Assembly (NCBI GenBank): GCA_034432975.1
Contig: DAOUAZ010000190.1
Coordinates: forward strand, 17,955-81,954
DNA: 64,000 nucleotides
Source of the DNA: Anaerolineales bacterium
Lineage (GTDB): Bacteria > Chloroflexota > Anaerolineae > Anaerolineales > Villigracilaceae
Direction: 5' to 3'
The position numbers were made by a program, and so were the translations under genes. The notes under the pieces are model-generated. The model was not told where the DNA came from, ran no database searches, and saw only the letters and a program-made list of their open reading frames with translations. How positions within the stretch are numbered: position 1 is the stretch's first letter; each line of letters begins with the position of its first letter. Below are positions 49,683 through 53,900 of the stretch, piece by piece.

Positions 49683-52600
49683 ATGCCAGATACCACATCA
49701 TCCCTGCGCATTCACTTCGGCTTCGACGCCTTCCGCCCAGGCCAGAGCGAGGCCATCGAGAGTTTGCTGCAAAACCGGCAGACGCTCGTCGTTATGCCCA
49801 CTGGCGCGGGGAAGTCGCTGATTTTCCAACTGGCTGCGCTATTGTTAGGAGCGGGCCTCAGACCCACCCCTACAACCCTGGTCATCTCGCCGCTCATCGC
49901 GCTGATGAAAGACCAGGTCGACGCGCTCACCCGCCGGGACATCCCTGCCACGTGCATCAACAGCGCCCTGCCAGCCGCCGAGCAGGCCAGCCGCCTGGAA
50001 AATCTCGCCCAGGGACGCTACCGCATCGTCTACATCGCCCCGGAGCGACTGCGCAGCGCCGCTTTCCTCGACGCCCTGCGCCGCCAGCCCTCATCTGCGC
50101 TTGCGTCAGGTGCAAGTGTCAGCCTGCTGGCCGTTGACGAAGCGCACTGCATCTCCGAGTGGGGCCACGACTTCCGCCCCGATTATCTGCATATTGGCGC
50201 ATGGCGCGCCAGGTTTGGCAATCCGCTCACCGTCGCGCTGACCGCCACCGCTGCGCCCAAAGTCCAAAATGACATCGTTCGGTTGTTGGAGATGGGGGAT
50301 TCGTCCACCCGCATCGTGACCGGCTTCAACCGGCCCAATCTCAGCCTTGAAGTGGTCTACACAAGCGGACTCCCTGCCAAATTGCGCGCGTTGAATGGGC
50401 TTTTATCTCCATCCGAGCCTGGTTCCATCATCATCTACACCGGCACGCGCCGCGACGCCGAGGAAGTTGCCGAATTTGTCAATGCAGCGCAAGTTGGAAA
50501 TTTGCGCCGCGCCGAATACTACCACGCCGGGCTGCCTGCCGAGCAACGCACTCGCATCCAGGAGGATTTCATCTCTGGCAAACTGAACGTCATCGCCGCC
50601 ACCAACGCTTTTGGCATGGGAATTGACCGCGCCGATGTGCGCCAGGTCATCCATTATTCCATGCCGGGTTCGCTGGAAGCCTATTACCAGGAGGCCGGTC
50701 GCGCCGGCCGCGACGGCCTGCCAGCCCGCGTCACCCTGCTCTATGACACGCAAGACCGCGCCCTGCACGAGTTTTTTGTCCAGCAAAGCGAGCTTGGGGC
50801 GAGCGAACTGCGCGCCATCTACGATGCAATCCGGCCAGGGGAAAGTTGGACAACGGTAGACGACCTATCGCGGGGGTCGGGGCAGCATCCAGTCCAGGCG
50901 CGGGTAGCGATCTCAGCGCTGGAACGAGCCGGGGCGCTGGAACACCTGGGGGATGAAGGCTTCCGCCTGATGTTTCGCAAAGGAGCGTGGGATCCGGCTG
51001 AAATCGAGAAAGCCATCCAGCATGGCCGGGAACACTTGAAGCACCGCCAAAGCCAGTTGAACGGGATGGCGCAGTATGCCGAGTCGAATGCCTGTCGCCG
51101 CAAAATCATCCTGCAACATTTTGGCGACACCGGGGGGGCAGAATCCGCTAATTGCTGCGATAACTGCCAGGCTGGTAAGGGCGGGTCTGAGACCCGCCCC
51201 AACGCAGATGGAAAAGAGCCAGAGCGGATGAATCCCGGAGAGCGGGCCGCGCTCGTCATCCTGGATTGCATCCGCAGGCTGAAAACCCAGGTGGGAAAGG
51301 GCAAACTGGCGCAAATCCTGCACGGCTCGACGGCGCAGGACATTATCAAGTTCCAGCACGACAAAAACGTGTACTATGGGCGGCTGGCGGCGGTGAAACA
51401 GGCCGACATCGAGAACTTGGTGGCGCAGTTGGCGGAGTTGGGCTACATCAAGGTCATCGGCGGCGGGTACCCGGTGCTGCGCCTGACACCGCGCGGCGAG
51501 AAGGCCATCCGTGAGAAGGCGGTGATTGTCCTCAACCTGCCCGGCTCGCTGGACGAAGCCGCCCTACGCCGCGCCAAAGCGAAGTTGGAATCGGGCGGCA
51601 CGCTTGAATACACTGCCCGTTTGTTCAGAAGTGGCCTGAACCCGGAGCAAATTGCCAAAGAGCGCGGATTATCCCCTACAACGATTTACATGCACCTGGC
51701 CGACCTGATTACGGCGGGCAGAATTTCCGCGGCGCAGGTTGTCCCGGCGGAAAAACTCGCCAAAATCGAGACCGCCATCCAAAAAGTTAGCTCGACTCAG
51801 TACCTTTCCCCAATCAAGGAACTTTTGCCAAGTGAGTTGGATTACAACTTAATTCGCTGCGTGGTTGCTGAACATCAAAAAGAGCAAGGAGAAATTACAT
51901 CGTTGCCCGTGCCGGGCGACAAAAAAACCAAAGACTTGATACAGCATATCGTTAAACTTGGCGAAACCAATTCTCAAGCCGGTGTTCCCGAATTGATTGC
52001 GGCGCTAGAAAATCCGAACGGGAATGTTCGCCGCATGGCGGCATCGGCGTTGGGAAAAATTCGCACTCATCAGGCTGTTGAACCATTACTCATGTTGCTT
52101 GAAACCGAAACAAAACCCCAAGTTCGGCAGTATGCGATCAAGGCATTGGGCAGCATTGGCAACCAGCGCGCAGTGGAAACTATCGAGAAAATTGCAAATG
52201 ACGAGCAGGAAATGTATTATGTGCGCGAATCCGCTCAACATGCGCTTAAAAGGTGCAAATACCCGAAAAGAGACATTGTCACATCAACCGTTCTGACACC
52301 TGATACCCCAACACCTGACACTACCGCCCCCGACCCCGTCACCACCTTCCTCAACGCATCCCACCCCCGCCCGCTCACCGGTTCCTGGCATCTCGGCTGG
52401 TCTTTGGGTTTCCACTCCCGTTTCAGCGGCGGCGATTGGGCGCGCAGCGGCGTCGGCGACCTGACCTACCGCCTGAAATACGAAGGCGATACCGGCGTCC
52501 TGCCCGAACTGCTGGCGCAAACCCTGGCGCTGTTCCAAACCCAGCCTGAACTGGCGCGGGTGAGCGCCATCCTGCCCGTCCCGCCCTCCCAAAGCCGCGA

Positions 52601-52907
52601 AACTGACCCGGTTTTGGCCTTTTGCCGCGTCCTGGCCGCGAAAACCAACCTGACGCTGCAAACCAGCCTCGTCAAGACCCGCCAGACCCAGCCGCAAAAA
52701 TCCCTGCACACCCTGGCGCAAAAACGCGCCAACGTGGCCGGAGCCTTCGGTTTGCGCGACGAAATTAAAAACCGCCGCCTGCTTCTGGTGGACGACCTGT
52801 TCGACTCCGGCGCGACCCTAGACGAAATCACCCGCCTGCTGCTCCAACGCGGCGCGGCGCGCGTGCATGTGTTGACCCTGACCCGCACCATCCACTCTGA
52901 TTTGTAA
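49683..52907 (+). CDS. RecQ helicase - HTH - HEAT repeat - ComF/ComFC-like phosphoribosyltransferase-fold fusion protein
   Basis: Helicase motifs [35 protein letters not shown] and [12 protein letters not shown]. Zn/RQC region CRRK...CCDNC. HTH-like [17 protein letters not shown]. HEAT units [13 protein letters not shown] and [13 protein letters not shown]. The C-terminal ComF-like domain has [19 protein letters not shown] and [18 protein letters not shown]. Confidence 0.9.
   Translation: [1074 protein letters not shown]
50103..50123 (+). repeat. GTCAGGTG-family fragment in frame inside the RecQ helicase core
   Basis: gcgtcaggtgcaagtgtcagc encodes part of an apparent insert ([12 protein letters not shown]) just before the DEAH box. 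Confidence 0.5.
52293..52325 (+). repeat. GTCAGGTG/CACCTGAC-family repeat forming the TPDT linker of the RecQ fusion
   Basis: ctgacacctgataccccaacacctgacactacc encodes [11 protein letters not shown]. Confidence 0.75.
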
Positions 52908-52937
52908 CGCGAATTGCCAATTTGCGCCACCTGACCC

Positions 52938-53900
52938 ATGAATCAAGACTCACTCTCTCTACTCCTGCTTTGCTCCCAACTCGGCCTGGATGATGACTCG
53001 GCCAAAGCGCTGACCCTGCGCGAATGGAATCCCCTGGCCCGAAAGTTACAGGCCGCATCACTCCATCCCGCCAGCCTGCTCCAGTTTACTGAATCCGATT
53101 TCTCCCGCCTCGACCTCCCCACGGAACACGTAACACGGATTTCAGAACTGCTCTCTCGCACTGAAGCCATTCACGCCGAGTTGAAACGTCTCTCCCGCCT
53201 CGACATTTTCCCCCTCACCCGCGCCGATTCCGACTACCCCCAGCGTTACCGCCAGCGGCTAAAGGATTCCGCGCCGCCGGTCTTGTTCTACGCCGGGGAA
53301 AAAGCCCTGCTCGGACAGCCGGGAATTGCTGTCGTCGGCTCGCGTCACCTGGACGAAGCCGGGCAGGAATGCGCTAATTTCGTTGGCAGCGCCTGTGGGA
53401 TTTCGGGTCAGGTGCTGTATTCAGGCGGCGCGAAGGGCGTGGACACCCTCAGCATGGAATCCGCCCTGGCCGCGCGAGGAACTGCCGTCGGCGTGCTGGC
53501 CGACAGCCTGGAAAAAGCGGTTCGCAATCGCCAGAAAGCCATCAAGCGCGGCGACCTGTGTCTCGTCACACCCTACAGCCCCAATGCCGGGTTCTCCGTC
53601 GGCGCGGCAATGGGGCGTAATCGGCTCATCTACTGTCTTGCCGATTACGCCATCGTGGTCGCTTCCGACGCTGAAACCGGCGGCACCTGGGCCGGGGCCA
53701 CCGAAACGCTCAAAAATAGCTGGGTTCCCGTATTTGTGCTGGAACACGCGCTAATGCCGGATGGGAATAAATTATTGCTGCAAAAGGGTGGAGTCCCGTT
53801 TCCCCACCCGTTCAAAGAATCTCCGCTTAAGTTATCAGCGTGGCTGAACGAAAAATCATCGGCGCAGCCCAAACAGCCCAGCCAGATGGGATTATTCTAA
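52938..53900 (+). CDS. DprA/Smf-fold (SLOG Rossmann) DNA-processing-like protein
   Basis: GIAVVGSRHLDEAG, YSGGAKGVDTLSMESAL, GTAVGVLADSL, FSVGAAMGRNRLIY and VVASDAETGGTWAGATE match the DprA Rossmann core. It lies 30 nt downstream of the RecQ fusion on the same strand. Confidence 0.8.
   Translation: MNQDSLSLLLLCSQLGLDDDSAKALTLREWNPLARKLQAASLHPASLLQFTESDFSRLDLPTEHVTRISELLSRTEAIHAELKRLSRLDIFPLTRADSDYPQRYRQRLKDSAPPVLFYAGEKALLGQPGIAVVGSRHLDEAGQECANFVGSACGISGQVLYSGGAKGVDTLSMESALAARGTAVGVLADSLEKAVRNRQKAIKRGDLCLVTPYSPNAGFSVGAAMGRNRLIYCLADYAIVVASDAETGGTWAGATETLKNSWVPVFVLEHALMPDGNKLLLQKGGVPFPHPFKESPLKLSAWLNEKSSAQPKQPSQMGLF

Follow-up and report, generated by a model that had tools for sequence, protein, structure and literature searches.

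In a 64,000-nucleotide (nt) stretch of the genome of an Anaerolineales bacterium (Chloroflexota; assembly GCA_034432975.1, contig DAOUAZ010000190.1, positions 17,955 to 81,954 of the forward strand; hereafter the window), we analysed two adjacent genes that most probably encode a long architectural form of the PsyrTA (RqlHI) toxin-antitoxin (TA) or conflict module. The first gene specifies a protein of 1074 amino acids (aa) in which a RecQ-type helicase is joined to a C-terminal phosphoribosyltransferase (PRTase, or PRT) domain, and the second a 320-aa protein of the DprA/SLOG fold. Direct support comes from the families to which the PRT and DprA-like parts belong, the intact ATPase and phosphoribosyl pyrophosphate (PRPP) motifs, the strict pairing of the two genes and the variety of their genomic positions. 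The original prediction for this locus had presented the architecture as an undescribed system—either a rewired competence module or, as an alternative, a conflict system centred on nucleotides in which PRT and SLOG/DprA domains are combined. The alternative pointed to the correct family; the claim of novelty for the system fails, as RqlHI/PsyrTA has already been named, studied experimentally and provided with PADLOC models of its own, which match here, and the fusion belongs to this characterised family. What is new here is the insert of RQC, HTH_40 and HEAT domains in the large protein, together with the short PsyrA: no description of a HEAT-bearing RecQ-PRTase, or of the long form, was found in the literature searched.

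Earlier work on this family provides the frame for our analysis. RqlH of M. smegmatis is a 691-aa RecQ-like 3'-5' helicase with a linker before its zinc-binding (Zn) domain, no HRDC domain and a C-terminal ComF-like PRTase, and the mycobacteria that carry it are without classical RecQ (PMC3378886, Ordonez 2012). In E. coli (F11), RqlH and the DprA-like RqlI are encoded in one operon and display TA-like behaviour: RqlI co-immunoprecipitates with RqlH, deletion of the PRTase domain abolishes the interaction, the genotoxicity of RqlH (SOS induction and filamentation) requires the PRTase residues DIVD663, and the C-terminal extension of RqlI is described as a helix-turn-helix (HTH) (PMC4670107). 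RqlHI/PsyrTA was described as a TA pair in 2013 and 2015, and phage resistance was reported in 2022, with PsyrTA (known from P. syringae) listed among two-gene TA phage-resistance systems and psyrA deletions found not to be transformable (Millman et al., bioRxiv 10.1101/2022.05.11.491447). ShosTA, the sister system, to which we return below, has a PRTase toxin that binds PRPP, and its DprA-like antitoxin binds single-stranded DNA (ssDNA) and RecA (PMC11961720, PMC12961424).

Profile comparisons with PADLOC models carry much of the assignment. For the large protein, the match to PsyrT (PDLC03928, E 7.9e-139) falls into two segments, with aa 5-499 covering model positions 9-480 and aa 918-1073 covering positions 534-688 of a model 689 positions long; because the model matches both ends, the protein can be described as a PsyrT carrying an insert of about 420 aa between the Zn domain and the PRTase. 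The 320-aa protein matches PsyrA (PDLC03927) with an E value of 1.6e-94 and 315 bits, aa 2-312 aligning to positions 4-319 of 398, as against only 87 bits with the ShosA model. Similarly, a fragment comprising the last 156 aa of the large protein, i.e., its PRT part, reaches 100 bits with PsyrT and 32 bits with ShosT. Membership of ShosTA was rejected on these scores, the ShosT match being confined to the PRT part. When the window PsyrA was used as a query against plasmids, canonical pairs with the same gene order were retrieved. On an E. coli IncF plasmid the order is hsdM, hsdS, a RecQ-like gene (710 aa), a DprA-like gene (462 aa) and hsdR, placing the pair inside a type I restriction-modification (R-M) operon, and a Nostoc plasmid carries a canonical pair of 699 aa and 407 aa. 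These two plasmid pairs score 1011-1019 bits (PsyrT) and 470-577 bits (PsyrA), and the window PsyrA is 39-40% identical to canonical PsyrA, as compared with 73-84% to the partner proteins of other long-form loci. No RQC, HTH_40 or HEAT domain was detected with Pfam in the canonical 699-710-aa PsyrT. The E. coli pair is present in 53 of 5426 complete genomes and is annotated there as just 'RecQ family ATP-dependent DNA helicase' and 'DNA-processing protein DprA'; labels of this kind could mislead inference about competence and repair in Chloroflexota genomes.

The domain composition of both proteins is well defined (Table 1). Pfam upheld every domain that the original prediction had read into the 1074-aa open reading frame (ORF)—a RecQ core, a Zn/RQC region, an HTH, a HEAT segment and a PRT domain—and the DprA/Smf Rossmann-fold gene that it had placed 30 nt downstream on the same strand was recovered as an ORF with a DNA_processg_A domain. 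The motifs it had quoted, such as GAGKS and DEAH, were all found in the translation, and the Thr/Pro/Asp linker, which it had taken for a copy of a local repeat, contains the octamer GTCAGGTG once exactly (52312-52319, minus strand) and once in near form. In the ATPase core, motif I (GAGKS, K44), motif II (DEAH, D152-H155) and motif VI are present, and the large protein also has the Cys cluster; DEAD spans aa 18-195 (E 8e-26) and Helicase_C aa 233-345 (E 1e-23). The core passes the cut-off of TIGR00614 recQ_fam (397 bits against 219.8), bearing out the expectation of a RecQ-type rather than a ComFA-type motor, and a PDB sequence search returned RecQ (1OYW/4TMU, E ~1e-86). No HRDC domain was matched in the large protein with Pfam. 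The spacer between the helicase and the Zn domain is the counterpart of the 'RqlH-specific linker' and aligns with the E. coli and Nostoc plasmid PsyrT proteins with no large gap; it is not exclusive to PsyrT, as some PRT-less RecQ loci align across it too. HTH_40 also ends plain RecQ proteins at several of the loci recovered in our searches, to which we refer by L numbers (L015, L019, L028, L063, L070 and L081). In the 320-aa protein, DNA_processg_A covers aa 87-269 (E 6e-33), and SLOG cluster 4 was matched as well.

In the C-terminal domain, Pribosyltran was matched at aa 1011-1068 (Pfam, E 2e-8), and an AlphaFold2 model of aa 885-1074 had a predicted local distance difference test (pLDDT) score of 89.5. 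In a Foldseek search, the top PDB match of this model was H. pylori ComF (7P0H; E 1.9e-7, TMq 0.63), with PurF and ShosT next, and NCBIfam GntX (55 bits) and comF TIGR00201 (45 bits) outscored the generic Pfam PRT model (34 bits)—the ComF-type PRT that had been proposed. The PRPP loop, V1036-D-D-L-F-D1041-S-G-A-T1045, is intact, and P967, Q1005-K1006, N1017, A1021-F1022, D1037-D1038, S1042 and T1045 are invariant in the PsyrT alignment. Moreover, D1041 aligns with D663 of E. coli RqlH, a residue required for toxicity (PMC4670107). No solved PsyrT PRT domain or PsyrA was found in a PDB sequence search.

A PRT domain that is ComF-like by sequence and fold, next to a partner of the DprA fold, also lies behind the other half of the original prediction, in which a rewired ComFA/ComFC/DprA module would take in or process transforming ssDNA and hand it over to RecA. 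The elements of the analogy—a helicase, a ComF fold and a DprA fold—are present, but the analogy is not new, having been discussed by Russell & Mulvey 2015 (PMC4670107) and Iyer et al. 2017 (PMC5512222), and a competence function for this pair now appears very improbable. The family cut-offs are missed for comF (TIGR00201, 45 bits against 233.55), GntX (NF008616, 55 against 304) and dprA (TIGR00732, 82 against 191.15; PRK10736, 63 against 495), the motor is of the RecQ family instead of a ComFA-type DEAD-box protein and is fused rather than separate, and comEA, comEC and pilus genes are absent from the ~6 kb to each side of the pair. Cysteines are lacking in aa 885-930, at the start of the PRT domain, whereas ComF proteins have a zinc finger at this position. 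In addition, members of the family are found on plasmids, within R-M operons and in E. coli, a species generally regarded as not naturally competent. Experiments with RqlHI show TA behaviour instead (PMC4670107). As far as the predicted structure allows, the resemblance of the C-terminal domain to ComF is best described as one of fold only, below the cut-off of the comF family.

The two genes, whose joint conservation the original prediction had put up for checking, are kept together throughout. In a metagenome scan with the PRT domain, which yielded 45 loci, a PsyrA-like ORF begins 12-360 nt past the PRT domain in all those with at least 300 nt of downstream sequence (40/40), and in the remaining 5 the sequence ends within 263 nt. 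The same arrangement, with a PsyrA-like gene right after the PRT domain, holds in six other loci, comprising five assembly loci and one from the genome collection (L001, L002, L003, L083, L084 and L085). By contrast, such a gene follows none of the 79 plain RecQ genes in our whole-protein collection of 82 loci, the other three of which have a PRT domain and do show the pairing. A scan of GTDB genomes with the full protein had returned mostly ordinary RecQ, with a PRT domain in 1 of 80 loci, and was reused as a negative control for the pairing. The same pair occurs in differing surroundings in L083, L084 (Longilinea arvoryzae) and L085, and flanks mostly differ between genomes, some of them including AbiE (AbiEi/AbiEii), YoeB/YefM, methyltransferases or ResIII; differing flanks with TA and defence genes at some loci fit a mobile conflict module. 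A search of a phage collection with PsyrA gave two weak partial matches only, and hence no sign of phage carriage. Across the long-form loci (L088-L122), PsyrA is 72-88% identical to its counterpart in the window and the PsyrT domains are 52-71% identical. An antitoxin might be expected to evolve faster than its toxin, and the higher conservation of PsyrA suggests that it is constrained, either through a host partner that is itself conserved or through some activity of its own.

Several observations weigh against placing the pair in PsyrTA. The match of the large protein to the PsyrT model is split and, at 462 bits, under half the score of a canonical member; the generic RecQ-like PADLOC model DpdF (PDLC02864) scores slightly higher overall, at 476 bits, and on the long forms, too, a DpdF model ranks slightly above PsyrT. 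The 320-aa window PsyrA lacks the 80-140-aa C-terminal extension of canonical PsyrA (407-462 aa). In a neighbour-joining tree of 43 helicase cores with 200 bootstraps—a distance method, with just two short-form (canonical) PsyrT included—long-form cores were monophyletic in 200/200 replicates and grouped with canonical PsyrT in 4/200 only, and they share ~50% identity with plain RecQ, which is the RecQ-to-RecQ level, as compared with ~38% with canonical PsyrT. Around the pair lie mevalonate genes, VapBC and an Opp transporter, and no classic defence island. One relative, L106, encodes a 1070-aa protein of identical five-part architecture with a 323-aa PsyrA, and its left flank is the same as in the window (a thiolase and a DUF35 OB-fold gene, 81% identity); this synteny suggests some vertical inheritance. 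At the family level, deletion of native PsyrTA in E. coli NILS69 was without a phage phenotype (bioRxiv 10.1101/2024.12.20.629700), and the anti-phage activity of PsyrTA is context-dependent, not universal; the chemistry of the PsyrT PRTase is described as unknown in the literature (bioRxiv 10.1101/2025.09.30.679545).

Two other readings of the helicase have to be weighed against these data. That the large protein should serve as DpdF, the helicase encoded in Dpd islands for 7-deazaguanine DNA modification, as the PADLOC model ranked first by bits would have it, is hardly credible, since the curated NCBIfam equivalog NF041063 gives 213 bits against a cut-off of 550, the DpdF models match the N-terminal helicase half only and not the PRT domain, and no dpdA, dpdB, dpdC or queuosine-pathway genes are found nearby. 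PADLOC DpdF models also match canonical PsyrT (294-318 bits) and so act as general RecQ-like models. The most serious rival is a housekeeping repair and recombination unit, in which the long protein would be the working RecQ of the lineage, with a regulatory or nucleotide-sensing PRT domain, and the DprA-like protein would load RecA on helicase-made ssDNA. Such a unit would accommodate a core that passes the recQ_fam cut-off and is as near to ordinary RecQ proteins as these are to each other, RQC and HTH_40 domains that are usual RecQ accessories, the housekeeping genes around the pair and the left flank shared with L106, and a DprA-like partner better conserved than the helicase domains; in addition, ShosA binds RecA (PMC12961424), and there is the precedent of RqlH mycobacteria without classical RecQ (PMC3378886). 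We nonetheless consider it unlikely. The large protein fails two RecQ equivalog cut-offs (TIGR01389, 458 bits against 640; NF008279, 362 against 1015) and lacks HRDC; its PRT domain and partner are of the PsyrT and PsyrA types that act as toxin and antitoxin in E. coli; positions vary in most genomes, beside other TA or defence genes; and plain RecQ genes also occur in Chloroflexota (L012, L015, L028 and L070). Helicase-less remnants that retain the PRT domain and PsyrA, as in L083, fit the pair as a selected, addictive unit. As classed by sequence similarity, the effector and antitoxin of the long form are of the PsyrTA type, and its motor is a fuller, more ordinary RecQ.

To judge from the relatives recovered, the long form is a coherent subfamily that recurs in dozens of Chloroflexota-like contigs; where sources are named, they are Chloroflexota/Anaerolineales, in one case Omnitrophota. 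Most relatives are 900-950 aa long and consist of RecQ, RQC, HTH_40 and PRT. HEAT repeats are present in 12 of the 31 metagenome loci with the whole gene visible and, among the matches listed, in 22 of 120 homologues; in some relatives, e.g., L002, they replace HTH_40. Because the closest relatives (L083 and L088, PRT 89% identical) are without HEAT, the cassette has been gained or lost recently. PDB matches of the HEAT region to alphaRep proteins, including the ComF-alphaRep fusion 7P0H, were set aside as a product of the designed HEAT consensus. The window contains a second HEAT fusion, a 913-aa protein (10517-13258, minus strand) with an Hsp70/actin-like ATPase region and HEAT_2; copying of the module from this protein was considered and rejected, the similarity being generic and only 23%.

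Truncated and rearranged homologues were observed as well. In L083 (10001-12080; GCA_041301925.1, a 4.44-Mb contig), a 352-aa protein composed of HTH_40 and PRT starts mid-RQC and has no helicase; it is 86% identical to the window protein and is followed by a 321-aa PsyrA. Other homologues (e.g., proteins P0105, P0114 and P0078) are also helicase-less. Such forms may have arisen by decay or by gene splitting, or they may represent a minimal version that still works, in the manner of ShosTA. Finally, the PsyrT-like protein P0047 (673 aa) has a precomputed match to the DprA winged-helix domain PF17782 between HTH_40 and PRT, a hint that modules for DNA binding are exchanged between toxin and antitoxin genes in this family.

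We put forward, tentatively, the possibility that the long form represents a separate assembly or an ancestral state, in which a complete RecQ is joined to a PsyrT-type PRTase and PsyrA, with a swappable HEAT sensor and with DNA binding placed on the toxin (RQC, HTH_40) rather than on the C-terminal HTH of the antitoxin. If this were true, the long form would constitute an unrecognised PsyrTA subtype in Chloroflexota-like bacteria, with a trigger and regulation unlike those of E. coli RqlHI, and defence finders may mislabel it as DpdF or RecQ. PsyrTA is a recognised defence/TA family, and the long forms offer a natural domain-swap set—with and without HEAT, with and without HTH_40, helicase-less, and with an antitoxin devoid of the C-terminal extension—that could help to show which part senses, which targets DNA and which is controlled by the antitoxin.

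With the pair taken as a long form of PsyrTA, we infer from RqlHI and ShosTA its toxicity and neutralisation, what would trigger it and, if there is one, its effect on phages in this organism. By this analogy, the PRTase domain would be the toxic effector, binding PRPP and damaging DNA or the nucleotide pool so as to arrest growth, and the DprA/SLOG-fold partner would neutralise it, most likely through direct binding to the PRT domain. The RecQ motor, acting 3'-5' on ssDNA, may together with the Zn, RQC and HTH_40 domains position or regulate the effector on DNA; alternatively, the motor and its add-ons may sense abnormal DNA, e.g., phage replication intermediates. The optional HEAT cassette would probably serve as a protein-docking or sensing surface and, more speculatively, the winged helices of the toxin might stand in for the missing C-terminal HTH of the short PsyrA. 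Co-transcription of psyrT and psyrA is likely, because no terminator-like site was reported in the 30-nt spacer, where scan counts were within chance; across 48.0-54.4 kb, the promoter and terminator scan gave counts no higher than those in shuffled sequence.

Table 1. Coordinates of the psyrT-psyrA pair and its component domains in the window.
Feature	Position	Strand	Basis or remark
Large gene, psyrT/rqlH-like long form, 1074 aa	49683..52907	+	ATG; ORF and translation
RecQ-type superfamily 2 (SF2) ATPase core, aa 1-365	49683..50777	+	DEAD and Helicase_C (Pfam)
ATPase-to-Zn spacer, ~75 aa, aa 366-439	50778..50999	+	Between Helicase_C end (aa 345) and RecQ_Zn_bind start (aa 440)
RecQ tetracysteine zinc-binding domain, aa 440-496	51000..51170	+	PF16124 RecQ_Zn_bind, E 4.5e-12
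RQC winged-helix domain, aa 521-618	51243..51536	+	PF09382, E 1.9e-19
HTH_40 domain, aa 641-728	51603..51866	+	PF14493, E 1.2e-25
PBS-lyase-type HEAT module, aa 748-860	51924..52262	+	HEAT_2 E 5e-19, HEAT_PBS E 2.8e-12
Thr/Pro/Asp linker	52293..52337	+	Contains CACCTGAC once exactly and once in near form (GTCAGGTG on opposite strand)
ComF-like PRTase domain, aa 885-1074	52335..52904	+	PsyrT model 534-688; AlphaFold2 model; Foldseek
Intergenic spacer, 30 nt	52908..52937		CACCTGAC copy at 52928-52935
psyrA/rqlI-like gene, short form, 320 aa, DprA/SLOG fold	52938..53900	+	ATG; PADLOC PsyrA, DNA_processg_A

Between the DUF35 OB-fold gene and psyrT lies a 1.65-kb segment of low guanine-plus-cytosine (GC) content (48028-49682), the corresponding interval in L106 being ~320 nt. 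Patches within it are 75-97% identical to parts of a 428-aa ORF in L091 and L092 that has no Pfam match, and they are likely gene remnants. The conserved patches at 48.1-48.4 kb had been considered as a candidate RNA gene and were rejected, as they resemble remnants of the 428-aa ORF seen in L091 instead; Rfam and tRNA scans of the whole window gave no matches. On the minus strand, the same segment includes a 258-aa ORF with CxxC motifs (48433-49209) and no family match, to which a sequence upstream of psyrT in L091 shows 50% identity across 111 aa. A third, upstream component of the system (ORFs at 47936-49442) was likewise rejected: no Pfam or PADLOC match was obtained, and these ORFs are not conserved beside the pair, save for fragments in L091 and L092.

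The octamer found in the linker is a feature of the wider region, with 11 copies of GTCAGGTG in the window against 1.15 expected (20334-20453, 24947, 50105, 52312, 52928, 53407 and 61403-61429). In two places, one at 20.33-20.45 kb, where it separates two minus-strand ORFs, and the other at 61.40-61.45 kb, short tandem GTCAGGTGTCAGG runs face inverted CCTGACACCTGAC; these arrays resemble a small palindromic element of the repetitive extragenic palindromic (REP) type. Single copies of the octamer occur in the PsyrT linker and 3 nt ahead of the psyrA ATG.

Elsewhere in the window, a VapBC-type pair (44443-45077) is located within the mevalonate cluster, between the genes for HMG-CoA reductase and an HMG-CoA synthase-like protein; it comprises a MazE/AbrB-type antitoxin of 77 aa and a PIN-domain toxin of 134 aa, with a 4-nt overlap. 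A type II R-M pair (28151-30337), consisting of an N4/N6 DNA methylase of 452 aa and an NgoMIV-family endonuclease of 275 aa (E 1e-100), separates rpoC (22825-27063) from gyrA (30398-33199) and, because of its low GC content (0.48), looks like a defence cassette inserted among core genes. A further low-GC island (35000-40800, 0.41-0.50) contains an 886-aa protein with an N6/N4 methylase domain (36314-38974, minus strand), flanked by ORFs of 358 aa and 450 aa with no Pfam match, and may be another R-M-like or defence insertion.

Comparison with three known types of protein places the pair among described systems. Plain RecQ proteins with RQC and HTH_40 (L015, L063, L070 and L081) have the same layout as the first ~730 residues of the window protein, at ~50% core identity, but possess neither HEAT repeats nor a PRT domain, and lack a DprA-like neighbour (0/79). 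ShosTA shares with the pair the combination of a PRPP-binding PRTase toxin and a DprA-like antitoxin, and the PRT model superimposes on the ShosT structure with TMq values of 0.55-0.60 (structures named for comparison: PDB 8ZVA-8ZVD and 9VZO); however, ShosT has an N-terminal pyrophosphatase-like domain where the window protein has a helicase, and no direct binding occurs between ShosA and ShosT, in contrast to the co-precipitation of RqlI with RqlH. From PsyrTA/RqlHI, the pair differs in the length of the large protein (1074 aa against 690-710 aa), in the ~420 extra residues of RQC, HTH_40 and HEAT that give a Zn-to-PRT spacing unlike the canonical one, and in an extra Cys-free beta-hairpin segment of the PRT domain that is absent in the short forms, beyond the shorter antitoxin already noted. 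With PsyrTA/RqlHI it nevertheless shares a RecQ-like helicase that has a spacer ahead of its Zn domain and lacks HRDC, a ComF-like PRTase at the C terminus whose PRPP loop is the same and has the D663 equivalent, and a DprA/SLOG-fold gene directly downstream on the same strand, and PsyrT and PsyrA are the best specific PADLOC models for its two proteins.

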